A DNA stretch of 64,000 nt from an uncultured Gammaproteobacteria bacterium (GCA_964344965.1 CAYFPJ010000006.1:568-64567); one strand, 5' to 3'. Counted from the stretch's first letter, positions 12,943 to 41,869 are shown. Notes: a model not told the origin generated them from the sequence alone. Numbers and translations are program-made.

Positions 12943-13084
12943 ATCTTTAAGCGGTTTTATTCCTCGATGCTTGCATCGAAAAAGTGAAAACTAACATTGG
13001 TTGAAATAAGATTTTCTGCCAATACCCCGCAGCTTGCTGCGGGGATGGCCCGATGAAGTCTTACTTAAACCAAATTTACTTTTA
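12943..13084. repeat. 142-bp element, left copy; perfectly identical in inverted orientation to 41728-41869
   Basis: Exact reverse-complement match over 142 bp. It contains the hairpin CCCCGCAGC-TTG-CTGCGGGG and lies between the stop of gene 13082..14083 and the start of fmt. Confidence 0.9.
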
Positions 13085-14083
13085 TTTTTTTGTAATTTTA
13101 TAACGAACTCCATCACGAATACTCTCTAGGAGTAGTTGAGCTTCTTTTTGGGTGATTTGAGATTTCTTTCTACCATTAGCTATGGCTTGAAGTGCTTTAT
13201 TGACACTATTGTAGTCTATGTGTGTTCCTTTGGGTAATTTTTTCAATAACTCTGTCTTTGAAAAGATGTTGTCAAAAAAAATTTGGATTCCATATTTTTC
13301 TTCTAATTTTTCTGCATTTTGCCACATATATACAGCAGTATTTTTGTACAATGATGCTATGTATAATTCTCCACTACTTAGTAACTTTCTTACCAAAGCA
13401 TCAAATATTTGATTGAATTCTGTTTTTTCATCATCTTCATTTATTTGATCGTACATGCTGGCATAATACAGCTCGCCATAAGTATCTAGTATCACATCAA
13501 ATTCCTGAAAATCCCTTAACTCAAGAATACTCTCTCTGATTTTGTCTACTTTTTTTTGCTTTCCTTTTCCCAATAATTTTTTTATAAGAGTTTCTCTATC
13601 TTTGCTGTAGGGTATTTCTTTCTTTTTTATATGATGGTCTGGAAGTGCTGCATGACTCCTGGTTACAGCTTGTCGTGTTTTTTCTACAATTTCTTCTCTG
13701 GTAAATTTAAGATTTGACAAACTTGTTCCAATTATTTTCACATCATCACCTAGCGCTTCTCTCACTTGCTCGTTATACAATCCCAGCCCAGCACCATTAT
13801 TCAATACTTTTAATTTTCTTTTTTCTCCTGCGGCACGCAACTTCTCTACTTTTTTTGGAAATACATCTCCTATGAATTCAACTCCATGAGAAGAGTTTAT
13901 GGTACCATTGTTAATTTCTATCAAATCATTGAATTTTCCTTCAAGTCTGGTTTGCATTAAAGTGGAATCTTCCAAATGTTTTTTTGCTCCTATTTTTTTT
14001 ACTTTGAGCACTCCAAATTCTGGGTCTTCTGGATCCAAAAATTTTTTTCCTCTATCTCTTATTTTCATATTTTTTATAAACAA
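13082..14083 (-). CDS. hypothetical protein with a possible Rossmann/SAM-MTase-like glycine motif
   Basis: 333 aa. KVLNNGAGLGLY...DVKIIGTS resembles methyltransferase motif I/II. The C-terminal half is helical and of unknown function. Confidence 0.35.
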   Translation of the reverse strand: MFIKNMKIRDRGKKFLDPEDPEFGVLKVKKIGAKKHLEDSTLMQTRLEGKFNDLIEINNGTINSSHGVEFIGDVFPKKVEKLRAAGEKRKLKVLNNGAGLGLYNEQVREALGDDVKIIGTSLSNLKFTREEIVEKTRQAVTRSHAALPDHHIKKKEIPYSKDRETLIKKLLGKGKQKKVDKIRESILELRDFQEFDVILDTYGELYYASMYDQINEDDEKTEFNQIFDALVRKLLSSGELYIASLYKNTAVYMWQNAEKLEEKYGIQIFFDNIFSKTELLKKLPKGTHIDYNSVNKALQAIANGRKKSQITQKEAQLLLESIRDGVRYKITKK

Positions 14084-14092
14084 TTTTTATTT

Positions 14093-14836
14093 TTAGCTAA
14101 ACAGTAATTTAATAGCAGAAGCAACTACCACAACTGCCAGCAATATTTTTACAAATCCATTCCCTTTCTTGATCATTGTGTGAGCACCTAGATAACCTCC
14201 GACCAACATGCCAAGAAAAAGCGCTATGCCAAGTTGGAAATTGATTATCCCATAAACTGCAAATATAGCTACACCAATAATATCTGCGACAAGGGCAGGG
14301 AGTCTAATGGTCGAAGATATGTCGATTATCGTCATGCCAAAAAAATACATCATGGCAAACTGCATGAATGTTGCTGCGCCTCCGCCAAAAAATCCACTCC
14401 AGATTCCAATGAAAAATAAAGTAACATATCCAATGGTTATCATCATTTTTGATTTGTCCGTTCTTTCTACTCCTGTTCTTTTGTGAATAAATATAAGAGG
14501 TAAAAGAACCAACAAAATAATACCAACTATAATAGACAGAAGTTTTTCGTCTATGGAGATTAAAATTTGTGTACCTACCAACAGTCCAAGAGTGTCAACA
14601 ATAATAAGCGGTATAACGTATTTCCAGACTATTGTTTTTTCTTTGAGAAATTTTTTGGTGGCTCCGATATGGAGACCTGTCGCTCCAAGCTTATTGGTAG
14701 CAATGGCGACATGAGGTGGTAGTCCGAGGAAAATAAGAAAAGGGATACTGATCAACCCACCGCTACCAACCATAGCACCAATGAAGCTGGCCGCGACGCC
14801 GATGAAGAAAGTTAGTATGAGGGGGATTATTTCCAT
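14093..14836 (-). CDS. TauE/SafE (DUF81) family anion exporter membrane protein
   Basis: 247 aa with 7-8 TM helices and glycine-rich repeat halves (GAMVGSGGLISIPFL...) typical of TauE/SafE. Confidence 0.75.
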   Translation of the reverse strand: MEIIPLILTFFIGVAASFIGAMVGSGGLISIPFLIFLGLPPHVAIATNKLGATGLHIGATKKFLKEKTIVWKYVIPLIIVDTLGLLVGTQILISIDEKLLSIIVGIILLVLLPLIFIHKRTGVERTDKSKMMITIGYVTLFFIGIWSGFFGGGAATFMQFAMMYFFGMTIIDISSTIRLPALVADIIGVAIFAVYGIINFQLGIALFLGMLVGGYLGAHTMIKKGNGFVKILLAVVVVASAIKLLFS

Positions 14837-14838
14837 AG

Positions 14839-15651
14839 TTAAGTAGTATTACTTATTCTTTTGGACAATATATCTCTGTATTCTTCAATTACTTCGTCCT
14901 GTGATCCACTATCCCATTCACCATTCAAAAGATCTCCAGCATCACTGATATATATTCTTCCATCCACTAGTGCTAAGTTACTTTCAGCAGCTTCTTCCTC
15001 TGTCATTCCCAAATCAACTTGAGGAGTGACTCGTGATGACTGCAATCTTGACACAAAATCATCAAGTTCTTCAGGAGCTATTTTTTTTGGATGCTCCATT
15101 TTTTCAATGATGGGCATAAGGAGATAAATCCTTCTACCAATCATGATCATCTTGGATGGAACAAATATTTTGTTTATCTCATTTTTTAATTCTGTTAATT
15201 TTTGTGGTTCATCAGGGGACTTATACAAGGGGCTTCTTTCATCAATAGATAGTATACGAAATTTTACACCATCAATTTCACAGTAAACTAATATGTCTGA
15301 GAAGGTTTTCTTCCCTCTTTTTTTTGGTGGGGTGATTGCAATTCCTACTTCAATATCCAATCTTTCCCCAATATACTTTAGTTCTTCAGAGAAATAACCT
15401 GACGCTCTTCTGGAATCTAGGTAAGTAATACTTTCCTGGTATGGTAATTCTTGAATATCGGCAGCTTGTAGTGCTTCTTGTAGTACTTTTGATTTTTCTG
15501 TCAATAATGTTTGATTTCCTTTGACTTTATTTTCTTCTGTCATTTTAAGAGCAGTTACATCAAATCCATCTCTTGGTATTCTCAATACAAGACTTGCATC
15601 CTTGGTTTGTATCACCTCTCTAACAGCCCTTTCTTTATCTTGCTCAGACAT
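14839..15651 (-). CDS. hypothetical protein
   Basis: 270-aa ORF in an operon-like arrangement between def and the TauE gene. No motif recognised. Confidence 0.4.
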   Translation of the reverse strand: MSEQDKERAVREVIQTKDASLVLRIPRDGFDVTALKMTEENKVKGNQTLLTEKSKVLQEALQAADIQELPYQESITYLDSRRASGYFSEELKYIGERLDIEVGIAITPPKKRGKKTFSDILVYCEIDGVKFRILSIDERSPLYKSPDEPQKLTELKNEINKIFVPSKMIMIGRRIYLLMPIIEKMEHPKKIAPEELDDFVSRLQSSRVTPQVDLGMTEEEAAESNLALVDGRIYISDAGDLLNGEWDSGSQDEVIEEYRDILSKRISNTT

Positions 15652-15666
15652 ATTATAAATAATTAA

Positions 15667-16176
15667 TCATTCTACCTCGTAAATATCCTTCGCCTTATCG
15701 ACAAATAGAATCCCATCAAGATGATCTACTTCATGCTGGATAACACGAGCAAAGAAGTCTGTGGCTTTGAATTTGAGCTCATGACCATCTCGATCCCAAG
15801 CCTCTACATAGATATTTTTGTATCTCTTTACCTTACCAAAAGTCTTAGGGACAGAGAGACAGCCTTCGGTATCCCAGGCAGTCTTACGACTCGTTCTTTC
15901 CCAGACTGGATTTACAAGTACCAAATCTTGGCCAGCCAAGTCATGATCTTTGTTAATTGCTTCTTTTCCTACCACCAAGATTCTGACATTGTTGTCGACT
16001 TGTGGAGCAGCCAGTCCAATCCCGTCGTCATCATACATTGTTGGGATCATTTCATCTATTAATTCTTGGGTATTTACTGATAATAAAAAATCACGATCTA
16101 TTTCTACAGATCGTTCTCGGAGAGATGGGGTTGGGATTTTTATTATTTTGAGCATTAGAAAAGGATTAAAAGGCAC
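15667..16176 (-). CDS. def: peptide deformylase
   Basis: GLAAPQV, EGCLSVP and QHEVDHLDG metal-binding motifs are all present. Confidence 0.92.
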   Translation of the reverse strand: MPFNPFLMLKIIKIPTPSLRERSVEIDRDFLLSVNTQELIDEMIPTMYDDDGIGLAAPQVDNNVRILVVGKEAINKDHDLAGQDLVLVNPVWERTSRKTAWDTEGCLSVPKTFGKVKRYKNIYVEAWDRDGHELKFKATDFFARVIQHEVDHLDGILFVDKAKDIYEVE

Positions 16177-16201
16177 AAAAGGCTGGAAAGGCTGGAAAGG
16201 C

Positions 16202-16504
16202 CTAAAATGCTTTTTTATTTGTGTTATTATTCATGTCATTCGCATGCTTACTTTTCCAGACAAACAATTTTCCTGGATTATCTACATTACTATCTTGGAT
16301 TTCAGAGAATATTTGTCTTGCTCTCGTCACACCAATTCTCTTGATGATCCCAAGATACATGCCAAATTTTTTTCGCTCACCAAAAGCACTAGAGATCACA
16401 TCTGTCCAATAGTGAACCTCAGAATGAATATTTTTATTCTGCGGCTTCTTTGGTTTAGTTTTTTTCAAGATGTCAGATATGTCGTCCATATTGACAGTAG
16501 ACAA
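16202..16504 (-). CDS. hypothetical small protein, possible helix-hairpin-helix
   Basis: 100 aa. YLGIIKRIGVTRARQIF resembles an HhH motif (L..I.GIG...A..I). Confidence 0.35.
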   Translation of the reverse strand: MSTVNMDDISDILKKTKPKKPQNKNIHSEVHYWTDVISSAFGERKKFGMYLGIIKRIGVTRARQIFSEIQDSNVDNPGKLFVWKSKHANDMNNNTNKKAF

Positions 16505-16548
16505 AATTAGAAAGAAATATTCGTGTCAATTCGTGCTATTCGCATATA

Positions 16549-17343
16549 TTAATCAAAACCAAACTCTCCTGTCAAATAACCAACACCAAAAGGGGATTCG
16601 TAGCAAAGGTTTTTAAAGGTATAATTCATGTTTTTTAGTACCCCAAGAGCTATCAAGATAGATCTATAAGCACAATCATCAGCATTGGCCACCATGTCAG
16701 GATCTAGTCCCACAAACCCTGTGGTATTATGTGTCTCCAGTAGTTCGATAATTTTATCATCAAATTTTTGACCATCTTTATGAAATCCTCCTGGAGAGTT
16801 GGTGGTAAGCCTGTGAGAGAGGTCTCCAGAAGCTATGAGGGCTATTCTTTTTTCTGAATTCATGATTACTTCTTTCAATATCTCACCAAAAAGAAGGTGA
16901 GACTTGGCATCTGTTTTGCTGTATCCAAGGGGGAGGACTTGCACATTTGGTAGATGAGAAGTCAGAAAGAACAGTGGGACACTGGCGCCGTGACCCAGCT
17001 CTTCATTGCTTATTAGTCTTGTAGCTATGTTCTCCTCTCTTGTCTTGTGTTGTATTTTGGCAGCAATAGAAGGAGCCCCAGACCACGACTTTTTGGTTTC
17101 CATGTCTCCGAATTCTTGAAAATGAGATTGTAGAGTGGTATGAGCATTTACCACAAAAGTATCATCATATATTCCTTCATGTGGAGTGATGATGATGATT
17201 AGATGAGGCTTGGATAGATATAGGTTTTGCTCTATCTCTTCCAATGCCTTTTTTGTTTTTACTAGCTCCTCAGTCTTATCTTTGCCAATATTTGGTATTA
17301 GTAAAGGTGGGTGGGGAGTAATAGCGGAGTATACAAGAGACAT
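16549..17343 (-). CDS. LigB-superfamily protein (class III extradiol dioxygenase / MEMO1-like)
   Basis: 264 aa. N-terminal AITPHPP and the SGDLSHRL motif are characteristic of the LigB/MEMO family. Confidence 0.5.
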   Translation of the reverse strand: MSLVYSAITPHPPLLIPNIGKDKTEELVKTKKALEEIEQNLYLSKPHLIIIITPHEGIYDDTFVVNAHTTLQSHFQEFGDMETKKSWSGAPSIAAKIQHKTREENIATRLISNEELGHGASVPLFFLTSHLPNVQVLPLGYSKTDAKSHLLFGEILKEVIMNSEKRIALIASGDLSHRLTTNSPGGFHKDGQKFDDKIIELLETHNTTGFVGLDPDMVANADDCAYRSILIALGVLKNMNYTFKNLCYESPFGVGYLTGEFGFD

Positions 17344-17352
17344 ATTGTTATG

Positions 17353-17432
17353 TGCGAAATTACGAAAGGTACGAAATATACGAAAATAAATAATTTAGTT
17401 CGTATATTTCGTACTGTTCGTATCTTCGTACA
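17353..17432. promoter_or_regulatory. Long palindrome built from 9-bp-spaced TACGAA/TTCGTA repeats (candidate operator or bidirectional terminator)
   Basis: Perfect 16-bp IR GTACGAAATATACGAA (17369-17384) pairs with TTCGTATATTTCGTAC (17399-17414) across a 14-nt loop. It is extended by further TACGAAA / TTCGTA repeats, with TACGAA recurring 3 times on the left arm and TTCGTA 4 times on the right. Related ATTCGTG / ATTCGCA repeats occur at 16518-16542. Confidence 0.5.
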
Positions 17433-17436
17433 TGAT

Positions 17437-19695
17437 TTAGAATTGATTTGTTGCCCAAATAGATAGGGCACGAGGCTCTTCAAATCTATATGGATGGTCT
17501 GGATTACCCATAGTTATAATAACAAATTTCTTCTTGTCTGTCTTCCTTTCTATCAGCATGACAAGATTGTCTCCAGCTTCGTAGATATATCCAGTTTTGC
17601 TGGCAATTATGGAAAAAGGTAGTCCTAATTCTTTTACGAGATCATTGCTGTGGTCATCCTGGTGCTTAGGGGAATCATTTTTATCAACTAATTCTTCGTA
17701 TTCATAAGATTTTTTGCCAAGGTAGTTTTTCACATCATTATTTTTGACGGCTTTTTGGAAAATAGTAAGATATTCTCTTGCCGTTGTCTCATTTGGTACA
17801 CCACCTCCATAAACATCTACAAACTTGGTGTTTTCCAATCCCCAATCTTTGGCTTGCTTATTCATGCCAGCTATAAAATCATCTTCATTGGTAGCTCCTT
17901 TGACTAGCATTCTAGATTGGGTGTTTAGTGAAGAGACCAGCATGGCGTCCAGCAAATTACTGTTTAGTATCTTCTCACCTTCTGTAATGTTATAAAAGTG
18001 AAAGTCAGGAGGAGTCTTGTGTTCTGCAGCCACATAGGTGACCGAGGCATTTTTATTCAGCCCTTCCTTGAATAATCTATAAGCAGTCATAACTTTGGCA
18101 AATGAGGCTGTCGGTCTTACTGTATCTATATTTTTACCAGCCAATATTTCTCCTGTAGTATAGTCTGCTACCAAATAAGTATCTACATCTGTATCAAATT
18201 CTGTACCTATGACTTCTTTCTTATCTTCAGGAGTTCTGACCATTAGATCTACAACACTTGGTTCTTCTTTGGGTGAAGTATAATCAGAGGTGGGGGTAGT
18301 GGTATCTGTAGTAGTTTCCTCTTTTTCTGAACGAAGATAGATTGGCTCACCAATCTCTATGGTTGTACCACTAAATTGGTTGATCCAAATAATATTACCC
18401 CAATCAAATCCTAATCCATTGAATACAGCTTCAGAAGCTATGTGTCTTTTTTTACCTTTTTCCATGACATATATTTTACTGCTTCCTTCTGTCCCAAATA
18501 TTGTCCCATCTTTTAGTATTACAGTAGGTCCTGATTCATAATTTTTTAGATCAGAAGCCTGGCCACTTTCTATGGTAAGATGGGAGAAGTTTATCTTTGC
18601 AATTGTTTCATCGTATATTGGTTGGTACTGATTATCATTTAGATAATATATTGTGTTGTTTTCTGCTACCTTGAGCAACCTTCCCAATGGACCATCTCCA
18701 GTATTGGTATTGATAGCATTGCCTGTAGAATAATTTTCTAGGTCATCACTACTCACCTCCAAAATTTCATCTGGATGGTAACCGAGCTTCTGGACAACTT
18801 CGTAGTCAGCAAAAGGTCTTTTGGAATCAAAATCTAATAAGTAGTATTTACTACCATTTTTTACAACTGAGTAATTTGGTAGAGAAATCTTGTTAGCATC
18901 TTTATAGCGAGTTAGCTCAGATTTTGGGACAGTCAATATGAGGTCTGGATCGTAACGTGTAATAAGGGCTGTCATACTTGTAAATGGACGCTTCTTACCA
19001 TCTTGAATCAAGTAGACAGTAGATTCACCGCTAGCTCGAATCAGCGAACCGTCCGGATACACTTGTTCAAACCACATCTGCCAAAGTTTCCAAAAATTTT
19101 CATTACCTTGCAGGTGTGGTGTGTAAGTGTAGAGAAATGCTGTGGCGTTATTAGCTGGAGTAACCTTTGTATTATCAATTGTATATGTATTACCAGCTGT
19201 CTTGATCCATGATTTTTGATTGACATTTTCATAATACCAGCGGATGATACCAGCAGCACTGTCGATTTGCTTACCAATTCCTTTGTGCTTGGCAATACTG
19301 GGATCATCGAGAGGTACGCCATCACTAGCTCCGTACCCTGTAGCCCAGTCTAGTTGCTTTTGGGTTGGGTCTTTTTCGGTCACGAGACTTTGTTCTTTTT
19401 GCAGTTTTACTAACAAATATTTGGGATTAATCTTATGTTCTTTGCTAGCTCGATAGATGATATCTGATATTTTTCTTCTTTTTTCGTGGACATCATTTGC
19501 TCGCATGGATTGCAGATAACCACCTTTTTCTTCCAGGAAAGCTTGAATATCAGAGCGATTCATCGATTGCCAGGCTTGCATCTCTTCATCACTGATTAGA
19601 TAATTGGGATCGAAATTACTAAGATCAGCTGCTATGGAGAGAGTTGGGGAGAGAATCATTGATAGGATGGTAATTGTACTTATTATTTTTTTCAT
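17437..19695 (-). CDS. secreted D-alanyl-D-alanine carboxypeptidase (S11, low-MW PBP) with a large N-terminal domain of unknown function
   Basis: Signal peptide MKKIISTITILSMILSPTLSIAA. The C-terminal roughly 280 aa carry SxxK (SFAK), SxN (SSLN) and KTG (KTGY) motifs. The N-terminal roughly 450 aa have no recognised motif. Confidence 0.75.
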   Translation of the reverse strand: MKKIISTITILSMILSPTLSIAADLSNFDPNYLISDEEMQAWQSMNRSDIQAFLEEKGGYLQSMRANDVHEKRRKISDIIYRASKEHKINPKYLLVKLQKEQSLVTEKDPTQKQLDWATGYGASDGVPLDDPSIAKHKGIGKQIDSAAGIIRWYYENVNQKSWIKTAGNTYTIDNTKVTPANNATAFLYTYTPHLQGNENFWKLWQMWFEQVYPDGSLIRASGESTVYLIQDGKKRPFTSMTALITRYDPDLILTVPKSELTRYKDANKISLPNYSVVKNGSKYYLLDFDSKRPFADYEVVQKLGYHPDEILEVSSDDLENYSTGNAINTNTGDGPLGRLLKVAENNTIYYLNDNQYQPIYDETIAKINFSHLTIESGQASDLKNYESGPTVILKDGTIFGTEGSSKIYVMEKGKKRHIASEAVFNGLGFDWGNIIWINQFSGTTIEIGEPIYLRSEKEETTTDTTTPTSDYTSPKEEPSVVDLMVRTPEDKKEVIGTEFDTDVDTYLVADYTTGEILAGKNIDTVRPTASFAKVMTAYRLFKEGLNKNASVTYVAAEHKTPPDFHFYNITEGEKILNSNLLDAMLVSSLNTQSRMLVKGATNEDDFIAGMNKQAKDWGLENTKFVDVYGGGVPNETTAREYLTIFQKAVKNNDVKNYLGKKSYEYEELVDKNDSPKHQDDHSNDLVKELGLPFSIIASKTGYIYEAGDNLVMLIERKTDKKKFVIITMGNPDHPYRFEEPRALSIWATNQF

Positions 19696-19726
19696 AAATA
19701 TTGGAATCTTTGACAGATATTTTTTT

Positions 19727-19802
19727 AAGGATTAGAGTTCTCGGCGAAAGTCCAATAAGTGCCCACCCAGCTTTCGCCTGGAATCCTTTTTTGTATTATG
19801 AT
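19727..19802. repeat. Dispersed hairpin repeat, family GGATT...CGGCGAAAG...CTTTCGCC..GGAATCC-Tn (copy B)
   Basis: AAGGATTAGAGTTCTCGGCGAAAG...CAGCTTTCGCCTGGAATCCTTTTTT. It is closely related to 23636-23695. Confidence 0.6.
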
Positions 19803-19891
19803 TATCTAGCAAGTATAACATATTTTGCTATATAATAAAAATATGAATTCAACTTGCTTTTTCTCTTATTTTTGGCTAAAATATAAGCGAT

Positions 19892-20638
19892 ATGGAAAAA
19901 GGAATACTTTACATAGTAGCCACACCGATTGGCAATCTTGGTGATATTACAATGCGGGCTCTAGAAATTTTGAAGTCTGTAGATATTATCTTGTGTGAAG
20001 ACACTAGAGTCACTAAGAAATTACTTAGCCATTTCGAGATAAGCACACCAACCATGAGCTATCATCAGCATAGTGATGAGGGGAAAGTCGATAAGATTGA
20101 GGAATTATTGCTAGATGGAAAAAATTTGGCTTTGGTGACAGATGCTGGTACGCCAGGGATTAGTGATCCGGGGAATAGGCTTGTCCAACACGTCATCTCG
20201 ACCGATCCCGGCAGTCAGTCGGGAGAGTGGAGAGATCTCGATAAATCACGAGATTCCTCGACTTCGCTGCGCTCCGCCCGGAATGACGTAAAAATTATTC
20301 CAATCCCTGGACCTTCGGCAGTGGTCGCAGCTTTGAGTGTCTCTGGTTTTCCTACTGACAAGTTTGTCTTCATGGGATTTCCCCCGCACAAGAAGGGGAG
20401 AGAGAAGTTTTTTCAAGAAATGGCAGGTGTGAAGTACACAGTTGCTTTTTATGAGTCGTGTCATCGGATCAAGAAATGTTTGAGGCAATTGGCAGAAGTT
20501 TTGGGTGAAGATAGGCAAGTTTGTATTTGTAGAGAATTAACGAAGAAGTTTGAAACGATTTACAGAGGAACTATTGGCGAAATTATGGAGATGGATATTA
20601 AAGAAAAGGGGGAGTTTGTGGTTCTGGTGTCCAGGTAA
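19892..20638 (+). CDS. rsmI: 16S rRNA (cytidine1402-2'-O)-methyltransferase RsmI, carrying an in-frame insertion of roughly 30 aa encoded by a MITE copy
   Basis: ILYIVATPIGNLGDIT...EDTR...DAGTPGISDPG...IPIPGPSA tetrapyrrole-methylase-fold motifs. The segment VISTDPGSQSGEWRDLDKSRDSSTSLRSARNDV (20190-20290) is absent from typical RsmI and equals the repeat family found at 11926 and 39467. Confidence 0.85.
   Translation: MEKGILYIVATPIGNLGDITMRALEILKSVDIILCEDTRVTKKLLSHFEISTPTMSYHQHSDEGKVDKIEELLLDGKNLALVTDAGTPGISDPGNRLVQHVISTDPGSQSGEWRDLDKSRDSSTSLRSARNDVKIIPIPGPSAVVAALSVSGFPTDKFVFMGFPPHKKGREKFFQEMAGVKYTVAFYESCHRIKKCLRQLAEVLGEDRQVCICRELTKKFETIYRGTIGEIMEMDIKEKGEFVVLVSR
20190..20290. repeat. MITE-like palindromic element, copy 2, inside the rsmI reading frame
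   Basis: ACGTCATCTCGACCG...GGGAGAGTGGAGAGATCTCG...CCCGGAATGACGTA. It is GC-rich relative to the gene. Confidence 0.8.
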
Positions 20639-22114: not shown

Positions 22115-22123
22115 TAAGTAAAT

Positions 22124-23635: not shown

Positions 23636-23695
23636 AAGGATTCCCGGCGAAAGCCGGGTTAGTGCTCACCCGGCTTTCGCCGGGAATCCTTTTTC
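23636..23695 (+). terminator. Hairpin repeat family B/C acting as the metG terminator
   Basis: GGATTCCCGGCGAAAGCCGGG...CCCGGCTTTCGCCGGGAATCC is a perfect roughly 20-bp IR, followed by TTTTTC. Confidence 0.8.
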
Positions 23696-26296: not shown

Positions 26297-26390
26297 TTAG
26301 GAAATAGAACGCGGATTTAACGGATTGGACGGATCAAAACAGATCCATTCAAATCTATTTAATCCGTGTCATCTGTGTTCTATTTCCTAA
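26297..26390. repeat. MITE-like element, family 2, copy 1 (TIR TTAGGAAATAGAAC / GTTCTATTTCCTAA)
   Basis: 14-bp perfect terminal inverted repeats around an interior carrying ATCCATT...AATCCGTGT. A second copy is at 47832-47936. Confidence 0.7.
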
Positions 26391-27581: not shown

Positions 27582-27615
27582 CAGCTAGTAAGCAATAAGC
27601 AGAATAAGCTGTAGG
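27582..27615. repeat. Left 34-bp inverted repeat flanking the four-helix-bundle gene
   Basis: CAGCTAGTAAGCAATAAGCAGAATAAGCTGTAGG is the reverse complement of 27996-28029 with 33/34 identity. Confidence 0.8.
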
Positions 27616-27617
27616 CA

Positions 27618-27986: not shown

Positions 27987-27995
27987 ATAAAATTG

Positions 27996-28029
27996 CTTAC
28001 AGCTTATTCTGCTTATTGCTTACTAGCTG
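27996..28029. repeat. Right 34-bp inverted repeat flanking the four-helix-bundle gene; it overlaps the last codons of the mpl/murC-like gene
   Basis: CTTACAGCTTATTCTGCTTATTGCTTACTAGCTG. The ligase C-terminus (VQLVSNKQNKL*) is encoded by the repeat. Confidence 0.8.
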
Positions 28030-30962: not shown

Positions 30963-30968
30963 AATTCT

Positions 30969-31175: not shown

Positions 31176-31181
31176 ATTTTT

Positions 31182-34387: not shown

Positions 34388-34400
34388 CTAATTTTCCTTC

Positions 34401-35882
34401 ATGCCTAGGAAAAAGAAAATCACAACCAAAAAAGGTGTGAGAAAAAAATCTCCACCAAAAAAGAAAAAAGCAGTGAAAAAATCTGTTTCTCCTAAAAAAA
34501 AGGCAGCTCCAAAAAAGAAGCGAAAAGTCTCACCAAAAAAGACTCGCTCAAAAAAAGTAGGAGCAAAAAAAGTAACTCCGAAAAAGAAGGTCGTAAAAAA
34601 GAAAAAGGTGGTAAATAAAAAAATCACCAAAAAGAAGAAGGCGACCAAAAAGAAAAAACCTGCTAGAAAATCTCTACTAGCAAAAAAAACTAAGAAGAAA
34701 AAAGCCAAGGTCTCAAGCCTTGTGTTTCGTGGTTCAAAAAAGAACAAAGTGAAGCTAAAAAAACCAGACGAAAAAGTGGAAGAGCCATCTTCTGTAGCCA
34801 TGTGGTCGCTAATTGAAAAAGGGAGAGGGAGGGGATTTATCACTCACATCGAGATAAACTCTATCTTCCCTAGAGTGGAGCACTACATTACGATTTACGA
34901 AGCTTTTTTGGATGTGCTTGATAAGCATAGTGTCTCTCTTGTGGAGAATACAGGTGGAAGTTTACTTGGTAACCGATCAAAACAAAGTGACCTTTTGAGT
35001 CAGTTACAAGGTCATCAACCGGACCAAAAAGCAGGAGTGTTTGATTTAGCGAAGATATCTGAAGACTCTATCCAGATGTACCTACGAGAGATTGGAAAAA
35101 TTCCACTTCTCACAGCTGATCAAGAAGTCTCTTTGGCAAAGCTGAAAGAGAGGGGGGGCAATGCTGCAGAAAGAAAGATGATCGAAGCTAATTTACGTCT
35201 AGTTGTATCGATTGCTAAGAAATTTGTAGGCAAGACACTTTCCCTACTTGACCTGATTCAAGAAGGAAACATCGGACTATTTCGAGCAGTAAAGAAATTT
35301 GACTATCGTCGTGGATACAAATTTTCTACCTACGCCACATGGTGGATCCGCCAAGCAATTACTCGTGCTCTTGCAGACCAATCTAGAACCATTCGTATTC
35401 CAGTCCACATGGTGGAGACGATCAATCGTCTCAAACAACACCAGCGTCGATTACTGCAAGACTTGGGCCGTGATGCCACTCCAGAAGAATTGGCTGCCGA
35501 GATGCAGCAAGATATCGAAAAGGTCAAACATATTATCAAGATTTCTCAAGACACAGTGTCTCTAGAAACTTCAGTAGGGGATGATGACGATGATGATTCT
35601 TCACTCGCTGATTTTATTAAGGATGTCAAAAATGTCAGCCCATCACACTCAGCCGGAGTACAACTTTTGAAAGACTATATTCAAGAGGCCATCAAAGATC
35701 TATCTCCGCGTGAACAGAAGATTTTGGAGATGAGGTTTGGACTCAGTGATGGAGTGACTCATACGCTTGAAGAAGTTGGTCGGGAGTTCGATGTCACTCG
35801 TGAGCGTATTCGTCAGATTGAGGCCAAGTCTCTAGAAAAAATTCAAGGATTCGATATAATTAGTAAGTTGAGAGACTACTAG
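34401..35882 (+). CDS. rpoD: RNA polymerase sigma-70 factor with a roughly 130-aa lysine-rich histone-H1-like N-terminal tail
   Basis: Regions 1.2-4 are present: [68 protein letters not shown]. The N-terminus is made of KKxxPKKK repeats ([27 protein letters not shown]...). Confidence 0.92.
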
Positions 35883-35914
35883 TATCATGTAACATGAATC
35901 ATATAACATAAAAC

Positions 35915-35951
35915 AAAAAAACCACTTCATAATTATCGAAGTGGTTTTTTA
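35915..35951. terminator. Bidirectional intrinsic terminator between rpoD (+) and the ABC-F gene (-)
   Basis: AAAAAA-ACCACTTC-ATAATTATC-GAAGTGGT-TTTTTAT, with an A-run before and a T-run after. Confidence 0.8.
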
Positions 35952-35968
35952 TATTTTAAAAAATAAAA

Positions 35969-37483
35969 TTAAATTTTACCCAGATCAAGTTCTCTGTCGA
36001 TTTTTATTTCATCCACAAACTCAGGAGCATGGGAAACTAATATCATAGTACCTTCATACTCATTGATAGCCTTTGCTATTACTGGCAGATGGCGGAAGTT
36101 GATATGGTTGGTGGGTTCGTCTAGGATGAGTAGTCCAGGCTCCTGGAGCACAAATCTAGCATAGACTAGTAGTCCTTTTTGCCCTTCAGAGAGTGAACCT
36201 ACTTTGCTTTGCAAATCTTTTGATTTCAAGAGAAATCTAGCTGCTGTCTTATAGATCATCTCATTGTCTGGTACGCCCATCATACTCTCCAGTGACTTGT
36301 AAGCAGTCTGACCAAAGTCTAGGCCAGAGAAGTCTTGCTTGTAATAAGCCACTCGCACGTCTTTACCAATTGTAATTCCTTCTGTTTCTTCTTCGGCAAT
36401 ACGTTTCAGAAGAGTACTCTTACCAATTCCGTTTGGTCCTTTGATGAATAATCTATTACCTCTGCGCAGTCTGATATCTACTTCTTTTTCTACAACGTTA
36501 TGATCTTTGAGAATAGATATCTTTGACAATCCGAGAATTTCGTCTTTGTATTCTTGGGCTGGAATCTTGAATGGGGCTATGGTCTTGTCTTCACGCATCA
36601 CTTCGACCATATTTTCTTCGTCTTCTGCGACTTCTTCACGCATTTTGGAGGCAAGTTTTCTCATCTTTCCACCTTTGTGAGAGAAGAAATTTATTTTATC
36701 TTTGCGATCTTGGATATTCTTTTTTAGTTGGGCATTCTTTCTTTCTTCACGCTTAATCTGAGCATTGATATCTTCTAGTACATCTAGATAGTTTCCCTGA
36801 TATTGCTTGATATCATGGGTATGTTCATTCAAGTGCAAGACACCATCAGTAAATGAATTTAAAAAATATGTATCATGAGAAATGACAATGACAGTCTTCT
36901 CATACATGATCAAAAATGTAGTAAGGTGACCAATACCATCATCATCCAAATTGTTGGTAGGCTCATCAAGAAGAAGGATGTCTGGCTTTTGTATCAGTGC
37001 ATAGGCCAGAAGAAGGCGAGCTTGCTGGCCTCCAGAAGTGTCCTTGATTAATCTGTCGAGTAGAATTTCATAATTAACAATTTCCAGAGCCTCTTTGATT
37101 AGTCTATCCAAGTTGTGCTTTTTTTCATCAAAAGCTGTGGCAAAGTATTCACGGACAGTCATTTCTTTGTATTCATCGGCCATCACTTGTCTGGCAATGG
37201 CAATACTGGCATTTTCTGAAACAATAGCCCTACCTTCTACTGGCTCAAGTTCGCCAGTGATAAGCTTAAACATGGTAGATTTGCCAGCTCCATTTGGGCC
37301 CATGATAGTGACTTTAGAATCTTTGCGTAGTGAAAAATTAGCCTCTTTCAATACTGGCTTGTACTCATCGTAATAAAATGTCAGGTTGTCAAAACGAAGG
37401 ATGACGTTTTCTTTGGTCATAATGAAGTTAAAATCAGAGGTATGAACCACAAGGTGAGTGCTTGATTCTTTTTTTAGAAACAA
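35969..37483 (-). CDS. ABC-F family ATPase (tandem ABC domains, no TM domain; EttA/Uup-like translation factor)
   Basis: Two Walker A motifs (GPNGAGKST, GPNGIGKST), two signature motifs (SGGQQARL, SEGQKGLL) and a linker between the domains. Confidence 0.85.
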   Translation of the reverse strand: MFLKKESSTHLVVHTSDFNFIMTKENVILRFDNLTFYYDEYKPVLKEANFSLRKDSKVTIMGPNGAGKSTMFKLITGELEPVEGRAIVSENASIAIARQVMADEYKEMTVREYFATAFDEKKHNLDRLIKEALEIVNYEILLDRLIKDTSGGQQARLLLAYALIQKPDILLLDEPTNNLDDDGIGHLTTFLIMYEKTVIVISHDTYFLNSFTDGVLHLNEHTHDIKQYQGNYLDVLEDINAQIKREERKNAQLKKNIQDRKDKINFFSHKGGKMRKLASKMREEVAEDEENMVEVMREDKTIAPFKIPAQEYKDEILGLSKISILKDHNVVEKEVDIRLRRGNRLFIKGPNGIGKSTLLKRIAEEETEGITIGKDVRVAYYKQDFSGLDFGQTAYKSLESMMGVPDNEMIYKTAARFLLKSKDLQSKVGSLSEGQKGLLVYARFVLQEPGLLILDEPTNHINFRHLPVIAKAINEYEGTMILVSHAPEFVDEIKIDRELDLGKI

Positions 37484-37504
37484 GTCTCCGAAATTACATC
37501 AATA

Positions 37505-37541
37505 CCTCGTCCCGTACCGAGGTACGAGGTCGGGATTAAAA
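37505..37541. repeat. Dispersed hairpin repeat, family TCGTCCCG...TCGGGATTAAA (copy D)
   Basis: CCTCGTCCCGTACCGAGGTACGAGGTCGGGATTAAAA. Its reverse-complement relative is at 49237-49270. Confidence 0.6.
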
Positions 37542-37566
37542 ACGGCTGTGAGTATAGCCGTTTTTA
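37538..37566 (-). terminator. Intrinsic terminator for the sodA-containing minus-strand unit
   Basis: AAAAACGGCT-GTGAGTAT-AGCCGTTTTT, symmetric A/T runs. Confidence 0.7.
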
Positions 37567-37584
37567 GATAGTTTGTCAATCAAA

Positions 37585-37782
37585 CTAAGTATTGTTATAT
37601 TTTTTTGCTTCCTCTATTGCGACATCAGCATCATCCACGGTAGGTACTGGACCTCCATCTGCTCCTTGATTGTCGGCAATAGACCTTTCTAAAGCCTCAT
37701 TATCTCCAGCTACTTCAGCATTCTCTGCTTTAGAGGCTTCGATAGCAGCAGCTTCTTCTGGACTCATTGATTCATTTCCCAT
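37585..37782 (-). CDS. small acidic hypothetical protein
   Basis: 65 aa, E/D/A-rich. It sits between sodA and a terminator on the same strand. Confidence 0.3.
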   Translation of the reverse strand: MGNESMSPEEAAAIEASKAENAEVAGDNEALERSIADNQGADGGPVPTVDDADVAIEEAKKYNNT

Positions 37783-37810
37783 ATATTTTTTATGTTATTA
37801 ATTAATAAAA

Positions 37811-38401
37811 CTAATTTTTTAGTAAACTTCCAGCATGTTCCCAATTCACTACATTCCAATATTCATCTACATACTTAGCACGAGCATTTTGGAAGTCTAG
37901 ATAGTAAGCATGTTCCCAGACATCGAGAGTAAGGAGGGGAGTCTTGCCTTCTGTCAGGGGAGTGCCAGCATTTGGCATTGGTAAGATTTCTAGTTTTCCT
38001 TCACTATCCTGAACTAGGAAGACCCAGCCAGATCCAAACAGAGATGTAGAAGACTTGGTGAATTCTTCACGAAAACTGTCTACTGAGCCAAAGTCTCTCT
38101 CTAATAGCTCTCGCAAGTTTCCACTAGGGTCACTTCCACCATCTGGTGAAAGACTATTCCAAAAAAAACTATGATTGAAATGTTGAGCAGAATTATTGAA
38201 GAGCCCAGCGTTTCCAGTCTGGTGAGCAGTAGAAATGACTTCTTCGAGAGTTTTGTCTGCAAGCTCTGTTCCCTCAATAGCAGTATTAAGCTTCTTCACA
38301 TAGCCAGCATGATGCTTGCCATGATGAAAGTCAAAGGTGTTGGCCGAACAAAAGTTTGGGAGTGAGTTGTTTGGGAATGGAAGATCGGGGAGGGTGAACA
38401 T
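37811..38401 (-). CDS. sodA: Fe/Mn superoxide dismutase
   Basis: FHHGKHH, DVWEHAYY and the C-terminal metal ligands are present. Confidence 0.92.
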   Translation of the reverse strand: MFTLPDLPFPNNSLPNFCSANTFDFHHGKHHAGYVKKLNTAIEGTELADKTLEEVISTAHQTGNAGLFNNSAQHFNHSFFWNSLSPDGGSDPSGNLRELLERDFGSVDSFREEFTKSSTSLFGSGWVFLVQDSEGKLEILPMPNAGTPLTEGKTPLLTLDVWEHAYYLDFQNARAKYVDEYWNVVNWEHAGSLLKN

Positions 38402-38470
38402 ATGGTTTCAAATATTAAGGTGTGCTTGAATAGACAGCTAGACACAAGATAAAAATGTCGACTACCTAAC

Positions 38471-38818
38471 TTAGTCAATAGAATTATTTGGTGTTTCTAA
38501 ATCATTAATAATAGCTTTTATATTAGCGATTGCTTCTGTAAATGTAGAATACTGGAATTGTCTGAAATCAATTTTAAAATCATTATTACTGTCTTCCCCC
38601 ATTTTACGAATTGTATTTAATAGGTCCGACCCTCCACGATTATGCGGAGCTCTTATTATTTGAATGTCGGAAGTATCTGGATTTTTTTCAATAAATACCT
38701 CCAGCTCACTTAACAATACTTTGAGAGGCCTTATTATCCTCTCTTCGTTATTTTCTCTTCTTCTCTGTTCATTTTCTACATTCTCTGCGACTTGTGCTCT
38801 ATCTGCTGCTGTTTCCAT
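38471..38818 (-). CDS. hypothetical protein
   Basis: 115-aa ORF, charged and helical. No motif recognised. Confidence 0.35.
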   Translation of the reverse strand: METAADRAQVAENVENEQRRRENNEERIIRPLKVLLSELEVFIEKNPDTSDIQIIRAPHNRGGSDLLNTIRKMGEDSNNDFKIDFRQFQYSTFTEAIANIKAIINDLETPNNSID

Positions 38819-38854
38819 ATTTTTTTATTTAAAAATTAAGTTTTTTATATGATT

Positions 38855-39445
38855 TTAAATTTTACCAACCAAGTCTACACCTGGAGTAAGAGTATCATTC
38901 CCAGGTTTCCATTTGGCTGGACATACTTCTCCACCATGTTCACGAACATACTGGGCAGCTTGAAGTTTTCGGAGAAGCTCTTCAGCACTACGACCTATAC
39001 TATTGTCATGAATTTCCAGAGCTTTGATCACTCCATCTGGATCTATGATAAAGCTGCCGCGAAGAGACAATCCTTCGTCTGGAATATAAGTGCCAAGAGC
39101 TTTACACACTTTGCCAGTGGGATCAGCGCCCATTGGGAAGTTCACTTTGCCAATAGCAGGACTATTGTCATGCCAAGCTTTGTGAGAGAATGCTGTGTCA
39201 GTGCTCATACTGATCACCTCAGCATCCATTTCTTGGAATTTTGGATAAAGTTCGGCCATTTCTTCTAGCTCTGTTGGACAAACAAATGTGAAGTCTGCTG
39301 GATAGAAGAAGAGGATTAGCCACTTCCCCTTATAATCAGAGAACTTTGTCTTTGCCAGTTTATTTTGATGATAGATCTCTATTTCAAAATCTGCAATGTT
39401 TTCTCCAACTAGCGGGAGGCTATTGTTTGGACTTGTGTTTTCCAT
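38855..39445 (-). CDS. typical 2-Cys peroxiredoxin (AhpC/Prx1 family)
   Basis: Peroxidatic Cys motif FFYPADFTFVCPTE and resolving Cys GEVCPAKW. Confidence 0.92.
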   Translation of the reverse strand: MENTSPNNSLPLVGENIADFEIEIYHQNKLAKTKFSDYKGKWLILFFYPADFTFVCPTELEEMAELYPKFQEMDAEVISMSTDTAFSHKAWHDNSPAIGKVNFPMGADPTGKVCKALGTYIPDEGLSLRGSFIIDPDGVIKALEIHDNSIGRSAEELLRKLQAAQYVREHGGEVCPAKWKPGNDTLTPGVDLVGKI

Positions 39446-39466
39446 AGTATTTTTTGTTATTAATAA

Positions 39467-39591
39467 ACGTCATCTCGACCGAAAGTCTGATGAAATACAG
39501 ACTGGAGTGGAGAGATCTAGTTGTTTTAAATAAAAACCATGAGATCTCTCCACTTCGTCCCTCCTTCGTCAGGACTGCGGTCGAGATGACA
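39467..39591. repeat. MITE-like palindromic element, copy 3 (intergenic, 125 bp, near-perfect palindrome)
   Basis: ACGTCATCTCGACCG...GGAGTGGAGAGATCT...AGATCTCTCCACT...CGGTCGAGATGAC. It has 13-bp TIRs plus an internal 15-bp IR. Confidence 0.85.
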
Positions 39592-39684
39592 TTTGCTTAA
39601 TTATTATCCACACTTGTGTTAAGTAAACTTTGTTCCTATACTTAATTCATACGTGAATAATTTATTAAATCATACCATTTTTGT

Positions 39685-40830
39685 ATGAATAAACAAATGG
39701 GGATAATTGTGGGAGTTTTTGTGGCGATAGCACTTCTTCTGGTGGCAATTTTTTTCTTTTTTTCAACCAGAACACAAGATAATGATAGTTTACCAGAAGA
39801 TCTAAGTCAAGAGTTCATTCATGACAAACTAGCTCCCAATGATCCTACTATAGAAGAGATTGAAAAGGAGTTGGAAAAATTAAAAGAATTAACTCCAGAA
39901 GAGCTCGGAACAACCTCTGGAGTTTTTGAAGAAGAAATAATTTTATTAGAACAGCCTCAAGATATTATGATTACTGATGGTACTAAACACAGTGTACCAT
40001 TAGAAGAAATTTTGGCAGGGGGTCCAGTCAAAGATGGTATACCTCCGATTGACAATCCCAAATTTATTTCTGTAGAAGATGCTGAAAATTTTTTGAATGA
40101 TGATGAGCCTGGGATAGCAATTTCATTTGATGGAGTAGATAGATTTTATCCTTTTCAGATTCTAGTCTGGCATGAAATAGTCAATGATACTTTACCGGAT
40201 GGTCGACGAATTTTGGTGACATATTGTCCACTCTGTTTTTCAGGAATTGTCTTTGACCCAGTTGTACAGAATGAGAGAGTAGAGTTTGGCACTTCTGGCA
40301 AACTGTGGAACTCCAATCTGGTGATGTATGATCGTAAGACTGATTCGTATTGGTCTCAAGTACTTGGAGAGGCGATAGTGGGTGAAGAAACTGGCGTGAA
40401 ATTGGAAGTACTTTCTTCTGACCAGGTCAAATTTGGCAATTGGAAAAAACAATTTCCCAGCGGAGAAGTACTCTCTAAAAAAACTGGCAAGCTTAGAGCC
40501 TATGGCGTAGATCCATATGGGGATTATTACATCTCTCCGGGAGTTTATTTTCCACTTACCAACAAAGATAATCGTCTTGGTGAAAAAGATTTGATCCTTG
40601 GTCTTGTCGAGGGAGGAGAATCCCTGGCTGTTCATGTGGAGGCTGTAAAAAAAGCAGGTTCTATGGAGACCACTTTTGCTGACAAAAAAATCTTAGCAAA
40701 ATTTGATCCCAATCTAGAAGTTGTAAAGATATATGAAAAATTGGATGATAAGTTAATTGAAGTAAACCCTTTCACAAGTTTTTGGTTTGCTTGGGTGGCA
40801 GTTCATCCTGATACTGAGTTGATGCGATGA
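39685..40830 (+). CDS. DUF3179 family secreted/membrane-anchored protein
   Basis: N-terminal TM anchor, KDGIPPIDNPKF and VTYCPLCFSG signatures. Confidence 0.65.
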   Translation: MNKQMGIIVGVFVAIALLLVAIFFFFSTRTQDNDSLPEDLSQEFIHDKLAPNDPTIEEIEKELEKLKELTPEELGTTSGVFEEEIILLEQPQDIMITDGTKHSVPLEEILAGGPVKDGIPPIDNPKFISVEDAENFLNDDEPGIAISFDGVDRFYPFQILVWHEIVNDTLPDGRRILVTYCPLCFSGIVFDPVVQNERVEFGTSGKLWNSNLVMYDRKTDSYWSQVLGEAIVGEETGVKLEVLSSDQVKFGNWKKQFPSGEVLSKKTGKLRAYGVDPYGDYYISPGVYFPLTNKDNRLGEKDLILGLVEGGESLAVHVEAVKKAGSMETTFADKKILAKFDPNLEVVKIYEKLDDKLIEVNPFTSFWFAWVAVHPDTELMR

Positions 40831-40847
40831 TTGTGGACAAGCCTTTC

Positions 40848-40875
40848 TTGCAAATTCATACGATTCTGCTATACT
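40848..40875 (+). promoter_or_regulatory. sigma-70-like promoter for greA
   Basis: TTGCAA (40848-40853), 16-bp spacer, TATACT (40870-40875). Confidence 0.45.
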
Positions 40876-40948
40876 CAAATAAATAACCCGTCTTCTTGAG
40901 GCGGCGTTGTTTATTACATGGACAAAAAATTAGATAAATAAGTATAAT

Positions 40949-41413
40949 ATGTCAGACACACAATATCTAAGTAAAGAAAAACATAAAGAGCTAGAGCAAG
41001 AGCTGGTTTCCATTAAACATGAAAAAATACCAGAAATTGCCAAGCGTATTGATGAAGCCAAGCAGATGGGAGATCTTTCTGAAAATGCTGAATATCATGA
41101 TGCTAGAGATCAAATGGCTTGGGCTCAAAGTAGAGTAAAAGAGATAGAACACATCTTGCAACATGCTCAAATCATCTCTGATGATGACCTCAAGGCAGGA
41201 ATAGTCGGTATCGGCTCCACTATAGTTGTAGAGGTAAAGGGGAGAGAAAAAGAATTCACCATTGTGGGAGCTCAAGAGGCAGACCCACTATCAGGCAAAA
41301 TCTCCAACGAATCTCCACTGGGTGAGGCTTTTTTGGGGAAAAAGAAGGGTGATGAAGTGGATGTTGAGGTGCCGGCTGGTGTTCAGAAATACACTCTGTT
41401 GACAATAAAATAG
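40949..41413 (+). CDS. greA: transcription elongation factor GreA
   Basis: N-terminal coiled coil with the DLSENAEYHDARDQ acidic tip motif, and a C-terminal FKBP-like domain. Confidence 0.9.
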   Translation: MSDTQYLSKEKHKELEQELVSIKHEKIPEIAKRIDEAKQMGDLSENAEYHDARDQMAWAQSRVKEIEHILQHAQIISDDDLKAGIVGIGSTIVVEVKGREKEFTIVGAQEADPLSGKISNESPLGEAFLGKKKGDEVDVEVPAGVQKYTLLTIK

Positions 41414-41482
41414 AGCCTCTCTCTCAATATCTTTGAATGTCTATTAAGTTAGATATCCACTTGACAAAAATATGTCAATATG

Positions 41483-41514
41483 ATTTGATATCAAATTAAA
41501 TTTTGATATCAAAT
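41483..41514. promoter_or_regulatory. Tandem palindromic operator-like repeats, TTTGATATCAAA twice, 10-40 bp upstream of the Pmp-like gene ATG (41521)
   Basis: ATTTGATATCAAAT (41483-41496) and TTTTGATATCAAAT (41501-41514). Each is a perfect 12-bp palindrome, with a centre-to-centre spacing of 18 bp. Confidence 0.45.
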
Positions 41515-41730
41515 TTTTTTATGTCTAAAATAAATTTTGCCTCTATAAAGATAAATTTTTTGGTAGTTGGTTTGGCTATTGTAGCCGTCTGCATGCCATC
41601 TGCCGCCCAGGCAGCTGATATTGTGGTTGGTGGTGATTGTACTCTGGTGGATGCCGTTTATGCGGCCAACCAGGATCAGGCAGTGGGTGAATGTAGTGCT
41701 GGAGAAGTTGGAGAGGACACTATTCAATAA
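41503..41730 (+). pseudogene. N-terminal fragment (signal peptide plus CSLREA-like domain) of a Pmp-type beta-helix surface-protein gene, terminated by the inserted 142-bp element
   Basis: MSKINFASIKINFLVVGLAIVAVCMPSAAQA signal peptide, then ADIVVGGDCTLVDAVYAANQDQAVGECSAGEVGEDTIQ. The stop TAA is the first triplet of the repeat. Confidence 0.6.
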
Positions 41731-41869
41731 AAGTAAATTTGGTTTAAGTAAGACTTCATCGGGCCATCCCCGCAGCAAGCTGCGGGGTATTGGCAGAAAA
41801 TCTTATTTCAACCAATGTTAGTTTTCACTTTTTCGATGCAAGCATCGAGGAATAAAACCGCTTAAAGAT
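41728..41869. repeat. 142-bp element, right copy (exact inverted duplicate of 12943-13084), inserted in the Pmp-like gene
   Basis: Perfect identity to the reverse complement of 12943-13084. Deleting exactly these 142 bp joins ...DTIQ to LTEDVVLTEVANF... in frame. Confidence 0.9.

Follow-up and report, generated by a model that had tools for sequence, protein, structure and literature searches.

Probable recent transposition of a transposase-less IS200/IS605-family element into two sites, one of them a surface-protein gene

Results

Two Identical Copies in Inverted Orientation

The stretch of DNA studied here (64,000 nt, hereafter the window; CAYFPJ010000006.1:568-64567 of GCA_964344965.1, deposited under the name of an uncultured Gammaproteobacteria bacterium) contains two identical copies of a short, hairpin-rich element in inverted orientation, separated by 28.6 kb. 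Copy 1 stands between an open reading frame (ORF) for a hypothetical protein of 328 aa and fmt, copy 2 stands within a gene for a surface protein with repeats of the polymorphic membrane protein (PMP) type, and the segment between them carries def, an rsmI-like TP_methylase gene, metG, an MraY-like GT4 gene, dnaG and rpoD, a gene content on which Pfam broadly agrees with an earlier reading of the window made from its sequence alone (the original prediction). The copies are identical at 145 of 145 positions (12942-13086 against the reverse complement of 41726-41870), an identity that cannot be attributed to chance and that includes, and slightly lengthens, the perfect 142-bp inverted pair of the original prediction; the GC hairpin that it reported in each copy is also present. 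The mobile unit itself is 142 nt, with copy 1 limited at either 12945-13086 or 12943-13084, and at copy 1 the + strand is the top strand, which corresponds to the sense strand of the transposase gene tnpA in relatives.

The original prediction left the family unnamed. The element is a hairpin-ended derivative of the IS200/IS605 family of insertion sequences (IS), and so belongs to a known kind, the palindrome-associated transposable element (PATE), here in a bacterium of the Candidate Phyla Radiation (CPR) type. By definition a PATE is too short for a transposase, lacks inverted terminal repeats and a target duplication, and has near-terminal palindromes related to those of IS605-type transposons (PMC3119063). 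We consider it very probable that the pair represents two recently transposed copies of this 142-nt non-autonomous element; recent transposition of an active mobile element was also the main idea of the original prediction, and insertion is documented below at both sites.

Copy 2 Splits a Surface-Protein Gene

Copy 2 is inserted between codons 69 and 70 of the PMP-repeat surface-protein gene. Upstream of it lies an ORF of 69-75 aa that carries the motif CTLVDAVYAAN...GEDTIQ and then stops, and the C-terminal ORF downstream is in a different frame. Deletion of exactly 142 nt brings the two into one frame (...GEDTI(Q/H)LTEDVVLTEVANF...), and the protein across the rebuilt junction reads ...GEDTI(Q/H)LTEDVVLTEV....

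An exhaustive HMMER scan of 1.84 billion proteins with the reconstructed N-terminus returned 2,074 proteins at E <= 1e-3. Among the 150 best listed of these, the best-scoring stretch crosses residue 69|70 in 148, and the two that do not cross it are this genome's own two fragments. A word-indexed search for homologues with the same reconstructed N-terminus returned nothing, and NCBIfam and Pfam have no model of the N-terminal CTL..A..AN motif and were of no use for judging continuity across the junction. In an alignment of 12 sequences the junction is free of gaps and flanked on both sides by invariant residues (D66, T71, D73, V74 and L76). Given that the homologues are continuous across the junction, the gene was once intact and the element has come to lie between two of its codons. 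When the reconstructed 572-aa protein was looked up in public data as an exact match, in its Q and H junction variants, no empty-site allele of the same population appeared.

Since the insertion separates a stub with a signal peptide from a leaderless remainder, the surface-protein gene has probably been inactivated, and in annotation the 69-aa and 499-aa ORFs are to be treated as halves of one disrupted gene. The original prediction had placed both copies at gene boundaries, which is true of copy 1, between the 328-aa ORF and fmt, but not of copy 2, which is inside one gene. In both copies the TAA stop of the upstream gene is supplied by the element itself.

Copy 1 Separates Two Tightly Spaced Genes

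The 328-aa protein has a sole detectable homologue, in Ca. Magasanikbacteria GCA_002793015.1 at 55% identity, and this genome shares the gene order Peptidase_S11, Memo, def, ORF, fmt, Wzy_C, prepilin peptidase; on the strength of this homologue and the synteny we place the organism among relatives in the CPR/Patescibacteria. In GCA_002793015.1 the ORF and fmt overlap by 11 nt with no hairpin element between them, and judged by this comparison the locus is an empty site for copy 1. We propose that copy 1 landed in such an overlap, or in a 1-nt spacer, between the hypothetical gene and fmt; the tight coupling of the two genes is now interrupted by 142 nt of hairpins. Within the fmt coding region there is also a short tandem repeat with a 14-nt unit (AAGTCTTCAATCTT; 12693-12735).

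Anatomy of the Element

The features of the element and its neighbours are collected in Table 1. Its ends, CTTTAAGCGG... and ...ACTTTTATT, are not complementary and the only stems are internal, so that there are no terminal inverted repeats (TIRs), and because removal of exactly 142 nt rebuilds the conserved domain without an indel, any target duplication is at most 1 bp, not the TA or TAA that the original prediction had thought possible. With neither TIRs nor a target duplication the element is not a classical MITE (miniature inverted-repeat transposable element), as the original prediction had already held on the first count. MITEs of the Correia, ERIC and Tc1/mariner-like types, with TIRs and a target duplication (often TA), were rejected on both grounds. 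The 142 nt are too short for a transposase, and only spurious ORFs, such as one of 41 aa at copy 1, run across the element.

Table 1. Coordinates of the element, its parts and the adjoining genes in the window, with the Doudnabacteria stretches that carry the same core.
Feature	Position	Strand	Description
Element copy 1	12942..13086	+	145-bp identical block; exact match to copy 2, junctions in ENA and Logan assemblies, empty site in syntenic relative
Element copy 2	41726..41870	- (top strand)	Exact match; 142-nt removal restores ORF, homologues cross junction, junction sides in independent assemblies
Boundary choice 1	12943-13084		Restored junctions ...DTIQLT... and ...KITKK*; left flanks TTTA / TTAA
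Boundary choice 2	12945-13086		Restored junctions ...DTIHLT... and ...KITKN*; left flanks TTAAT (copy 1) / TAAAT (copy 2)
Conserved 28-nt core, copy 1	13021..13048	+	AATA + hairpin CCCCGCAG-CTTG-CTGCGGGG + ATGG
Conserved 28-nt core, copy 2	41764-41791	-	Same core sequence
Core GC hairpin	13025-13044 (copy 1); 41768-41787 (copy 2)		CCCCGCAG-CTTG-CTGCGGGG
Second hairpin	12964..12979 (copy 1); 41833-41848 (copy 2)	+ (copy 1); - (copy 2)	TCGATG-CTTG-CATCGA
Long imperfect stem around core hairpin	12997..13073	+	Single-stranded DNA and RNA folds
3' tail	13074-13086	+	ATTTACTTTTATT; terminates in TTTAT(T), the family cleavage motif; right ends of relatives finish in TTTAT
Hypothetical protein, 328 aa, upstream neighbour of copy 1	13082..14068	-	Stop codon inside element
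fmt (methionyl-tRNA formyltransferase), downstream neighbour of copy 1	12030..12938	-	Formyl_trans_N/C; ATG 3-6 nt past element end, by boundary chosen
N-terminal fragment of interrupted gene	41521..41727	+	69 aa, signal peptide, CTLVDA...GEDTI motif; stop TAA 41728-41730 from element
C-terminal remainder of interrupted gene	41870..43381	+	499-aa ORF from GTG 41882; Chlam_PMP/POMP repeats, choice-of-anchor Q domain
Doudnabacteria stretches with core			L017, L020, L026, L031, L034, L036, L049, L053, L058, L066, L074, L082, L085

Two hairpins dominate the element. From their counterparts in relatives, the core hairpin is predicted to be the right-end hairpin bound by the transposase TnpA, with AATA as its guide and the tail ending in TTTAT(T) beyond it, and the second hairpin is the likely left-end hairpin. 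Between the latter and the left boundary there are 19-21 nt, according to which boundary is taken, as against 13-18 nt in the relatives analysed, and this we judge to be a typical left-end distance.

The boundaries can be drawn in two ways, 2 nt apart, of which we slightly prefer the second (12945-13086). Its left flanks resemble the family target TTNAT, it accounts for an identity that runs 3 nt (AAT) beyond the left end and stops exactly at the right, and the restored protein end KITKN resembles KIVKN in the relative. In terms of targets, relatives use TTTAT, less often TTGAT and once TTAAT, against the two sites available here. A guide-to-target rule for the left end, drawn from the 4 nt 5' of the second hairpin, was tried and rejected, as TTCC, ATTC and TATT all misfit the left flanks. 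The empty-site junctions are reconstructed as ...GACACTATTCA(A/T)TTAACTGAAG... and ...ACAAAAAA(A/T)TAAAATGGAT..., and the junction of right end to left end in an excised circle is predicted to read ...ACTTTTAT(T)|(AT)CTTTAAGCGG....

Relatives of the Hairpins

A species-representative genome collection was scanned with a 25-nt pattern, drawn from the core hairpin and the bases next to it and with two loop bases left free, and at least 97 archaeal and bacterial genome stretches matched. By blastn the core is identical over 27-28 nt (AATA-hairpin-ATGG) in most of these, and beyond it the stretches share no sequence with the element. The archaeal matches are from Methanothrix, Methanosarcina, Methanomicrobiales and Thermoplasmata, the bacterial ones from Deltaproteobacteria/Syntrophales, Ignavibacteria, Bacteroidota, Chloroflexi, Lentisphaeria and Acidobacteriota, and those from CPR bacteria from Doudnabacteria and Kaiserbacteria. 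The 28-nt core, letter-perfect from Methanosarcinales to Ignavibacteria, Chloroflexi and CPR bacteria, offers a probe with which to look for this IS200 clade and its miniature derivatives.

In 28 stretches among the matches listed, the hairpin adjoins an ORF of ~150 aa for an IS200-type Y1 transposase (Y1_Tnp, PF01797, E = 1e-32); depending on the IS200 clade, the hairpin is the left or the right end. Eight aligned copies in one Methanothrix metagenome-assembled genome (MAG) are minimal IS200 elements of ~590 bp with the layout flank TT(T/G)AT | TTTTAAGTG-AATA-hairpin-ATG...tnpA...CCCCGCCTG-CTTG-CAGCGGGG...TTTGACT | flank. In Bacteroidota and Ignavibacteria the identical hairpin forms the right end, followed by (C/A)TTTAT and then the flank. 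The second hairpin of our element is likewise found in this company, its central 14 of 14 nt being identical to the right-end hairpin of another Methanothrix IS200 (stretch L013). Both hairpins of the element are thus TnpA-linked hairpins of an IS200 clade.

Transposase-less members occur as well. Ca. Doudnabacteria RIFCSPHIGHO2_01_48_18 (MFEF01) carries at least 18 near-identical copies of ~110 nt with the same core hairpin and the form TTTAT|...TTTAT|T, and no Y1 transposase was seen in the Doudnabacteria stretches examined. In Ignavibacteria, Bacteroidetes and Deltaproteobacteria we found two-hairpin elements of ~110-240 nt that start with TTTAT|TCC.... Among viral contigs the core was present in one uncultivated virus genome (UViG) and the second hairpin in none.

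Three further observations concern these relatives. Three Doudnabacteria copies in stretch L058 are exactly 620 nt apart, a spacing that points to tandem duplication of a unit including the element. Many of the core matches (L001-L097) lie at contig ends, which suggests that this IS breaks many MAG assemblies. In a 2.7-kb contig binned as Christensenellaceae (L079), an IS200 left end is almost identical over the ~100 nt compared to Methanotrichaceae/Methanosarcinales copies (L037, L042, L092 and L096), a likeness that could reflect mis-binning or very recent transfer.

Comparison with Known Systems

Among known elements the PATEs of Haloquadratum walsbyi, such as HqIRS46 (Dyall-Smith et al. 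2011, PMC3119063), share all features of the definition as well as near-identical copies ("homogeneous PATE"). They differ from our element in hairpin sequence, in host (a haloarchaeon rather than a CPR-type bacterium), in copy number, which here is only two, and in the transposase with which they are linked, since in our relatives this is an IS200-type TnpA alone and not of the IS1341/TnpB type. The IS200 elements of Methanothrix and Methanosarcina (the CAVWIG01 copies and JBFYLF010000021.1) have the identical 28-nt core, the central 14 nt of the second hairpin and the TTNAT/TTTAT motifs. However, they carry tnpA (~590 bp) where the element here has none, show no similarity to it outside the hairpins, and use the core hairpin as their left end, whereas it forms the right end here and in the Bacteroidota and Ignavibacteria relatives.

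IS608 of Helicobacter pylori and ISDra2 of Deinococcus radiodurans, the mechanistic models of the family, resemble the element in having subterminal hairpins with neither target duplication nor TIRs (PMC3333891), and likeness of mechanism may be presumed; unlike the element, they are autonomous, carry both tnpA and tnpB, and have hairpin and target sequences of their own. The protein-less PATE-like elements of Geobacillus stearothermophilus (Meers et al. 2023, PMC10055086) are similarly minimal, with only left-end and right-end sequences that resemble those of resident IS200/IS605 elements, and are predicted to be moved by TnpA in trans. Omega-RNAs for TnpB are encoded by many of them, whereas here we found no TnpB or IscB gene and no omega-RNA-like feature.

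Discussion

Proposed Mechanism

IS608 and ISDra2 move by a strand-specific, guide-directed mechanism (PMC3333891, PMC10055086), with which the features of the element agree. Their TnpA acts on one strand only, binding the subterminal hairpins in single-stranded DNA and recognising its cleavage sites through a guide 5' of the hairpin foot, and it prefers the lagging-strand template (PMC3333891). Excision in this peel-and-paste process is seamless, and insertion takes place 3' of a target of 4-5 nt (TTAC, TTGAT) (PMC3333891).

By analogy, we infer that a Y1 (HUH) transposase TnpA encoded elsewhere acted on the element in trans and would have recognised both subterminal hairpins on one strand of DNA in its single-stranded state, presumably + at copy 1 and - at copy 2. 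Cleavage at two points, one upstream of the left hairpin and one following the ...TTTAT(T) tail beyond the right hairpin, would release a single-stranded circle. This would then be pasted 3' of a target that is short, A/T-rich and probably TTNAT-like (copy 1 has TTAAT, copy 2 TAAAT). Single-strand chemistry of this sort would be expected to yield neither TIRs nor a target duplication. The proposal leaves the current understanding of the transposition mechanism unchanged. What is of note is the probable recent transposition in a CPR-type genome, the clean disruption of a gene, and a TnpA-binding hairpin that is letter-perfect across both prokaryotic domains. Small CPR-type genomes are usually thought poor in mobile DNA. 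The pair indicates that hairpin-ended, transposase-less IS200/IS605 derivatives are active, or recently were, in such genomes and can knock out surface-protein genes.

Several observations weigh against this interpretation. A search of the 64-kb window with tblastn and profiles found no encoded Y1 transposase. Only two copies of the element are known, and a scan of one JGI metagenome and a scan of viral contigs gave no further exact copy; in the metagenome the element-specific variant ...GGGGTATTGGC found three unrelated family members. The boundaries remain ambiguous by 2 nt, and the target rule is based on only two sites. The left hairpin is weak, with a stem of only 6 bp, and is without the AATA guide present in relatives. 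Between the core hairpin and the right cleavage motif there are 41-42 nt, an unusual distance compared with 8-22 nt in relatives, though the foot of the extended stem is no more than 12-13 nt away from the motif; given the distance from the core hairpin, the copies may be poorly mobile now. Finally, the active strand is antisense to the neighbouring genes at both copies, and if these genes run with replication, the orientation would oppose the lagging-strand bias of IS608 and ISDra2; local GC skew tracks gene orientation and gives no direction of replication.

Alternative Explanations

Whatever its origin, the pair might now, as the original prediction offered, allow the 28.6-kb segment to be inverted by homologous recombination. 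It provides 145 bp of perfect inverted identity. All four unique flanks are matched at 100% by ENA (MEGAHIT k127) and Logan contigs of runs ERR2281800-805 (project PRJEB17505), and the contigs that reach the element all end inside it, mostly ~122 nt in, as a genuine repeat longer than k would be expected to cause, and the repeat explains the breaks of short-read assemblies at two points in this organism. One ENA contig of 28,884 nt, placed from its first 4.1 kb, has exactly the size expected for the segment between the copies, and the assembly graph would thus permit both orientations. On the other hand, copy 2 still has the two halves of the split gene on its two sides, facing each other. This orientation is ancestral and indicates that the window shows the arrangement of the insertion event. 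There is no direct evidence of inversion, 145 bp is short for RecA, and no regulatory logic is obvious, and we regard ongoing inversion as unlikely.

An equally unlikely variant of the transposition account starts from the sequence TTTTAT-TCC (12955-12963), which immediately precedes the second hairpin and is similar to the boundary TTTAT|TCC between target and left end in relatives. As a speculation, this may be the ancestral boundary with its spacer deleted, the present left end including ~16 nt of former flank. The original left end may then have lost spacer and guide, with the working end rebuilt from the captured ~16 nt, and the element may move in a reduced CPR genome with a possibly foreign TnpA that a partner organism or a co-resident element, for example, might supply; the same hairpin is abundant in Methanosarcinales. 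As members of this family excise seamlessly, the copy within the PMP-like adhesin gene could, on such an account, act as a reversible switch that turns the surface protein on and off.

Highly unlikely, in our estimation, is a repetitive extragenic palindrome (REP) or bacterial interspersed mosaic element (BIME), handled by a domesticated REP-associated tyrosine transposase (RAYT, or TnpA-REP), in place of an IS200/IS605 derivative. REPs are likewise GC-rich hairpins that a Y1 HUH enzyme recognises and binds, and they resemble the end hairpins of IS200/IS605 elements (PMC3333891). However, their 5' tag, GTAG or CGTC, is missing from both palindromes of the element, which have AATA or TTCC there; one copy is inside a coding gene rather than at an extragenic site; and the Y1 genes next to the hairpin in relatives belong to multi-copy IS elements with defined ends (eight in the one Methanothrix MAG), in contrast to RAYT genes, which are domesticated and single-copy.

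Fainter still is the likelihood that two sequences long resident at these sites became identical through ectopic recombination or gene conversion; the latter, named by the original prediction, is unnecessary to explain the pair. Recent conversion would also produce perfect identity over 145 bp, but the sequence is not ancestral at either site, the relative having no spacer at the first and the second being in the middle of a conserved domain, and the identity stops sharply at limits that fit the ends of a hairpin-type transposon.

We give as little credence to the idea that the element is a structured RNA, either a small RNA or a small self-splicing or otherwise removable intervening sequence that leaves the PMP-like gene working. 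The fold of the whole element is indeed far more stable than that of shuffled sequences (z = -6.2 as RNA, -3.9 as single-stranded DNA), removal of exactly 142 nt restores the frame, and IStrons are examples of IS200/IS605 ends that move together with a self-splicing intron. Known group I and II introns are, however, far larger than 142 nt, and a self-splicing intron or IStron was rejected both for this size and because Rfam detected no group I or II core. Rfam searches of the whole window at gathering score and of the element at E up to 10 gave only chance-level matches, ARAGORN found no tRNA or tmRNA, and a scan for promoter and terminator consensus inside the element found none. The fold is fully explained by the two DNA hairpins held in common with TnpA-linked ends.

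Least likely of all is an assembly artefact in which a single real copy was collapsed or mis-joined, for although short-read assemblies break at the repeat, with every observed contig that reaches the element ending inside it, and the inverted pair leaves the orientation of the middle segment unresolved in the assembly graph, four distinct unique flanks enter the element at 100% in independent assemblies of six runs, which reproduce the four junction sides and answer the concern over a chimeric join, the contigs entering copy 1 from either side overlap by 99 nt within it (12965-13063), and a conserved domain is restored exactly once copy 2 is excised in silico, which would not follow from a chimeric join.

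Other Repeats in the Window

Apart from the probable PATE pair, the window holds further repeats, and the statement of the original prediction that there is little long repeated sequence is wrong for it. One is an inverted pair of 437 nt with 92% identity (46363-46799 / 59645-60081), longer than the PATE, with related fragments at 47832-47879 and 26297-26390. Each copy consists of a small ORF flanked by inverted repeats of 35 nt (ACACAGATTACAGGGATTTTATTGGATTACACAGA), solo copies of which occur elsewhere, and an ENA contig annotates the gene at this position as PF13366 PDDEXK_3; the pair looks like a second small mobile cassette, of TIR type.

Several small genes in the window are flanked by inverted repeats of 30-65 nt. 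Repeats of 36 nt (97%; 27582-27617 / 27994-28029) enclose a segment of ~380 nt, and repeats of ~65 nt (94%; 4017-4082 / 4585-4644) one of ~500 nt; a single short - strand ORF is present in each of these two segments, which may be additional miniature gene cassettes or invertible segments. Two other GC-hairpin repeats are unrelated in sequence to the PATE, namely a direct pair of 54 nt with 83% identity (19738-19791 / 23641-23694) and, from another hairpin family, an inverted pair of 49 nt with 88% identity (37492-37540 / 49235-49283).

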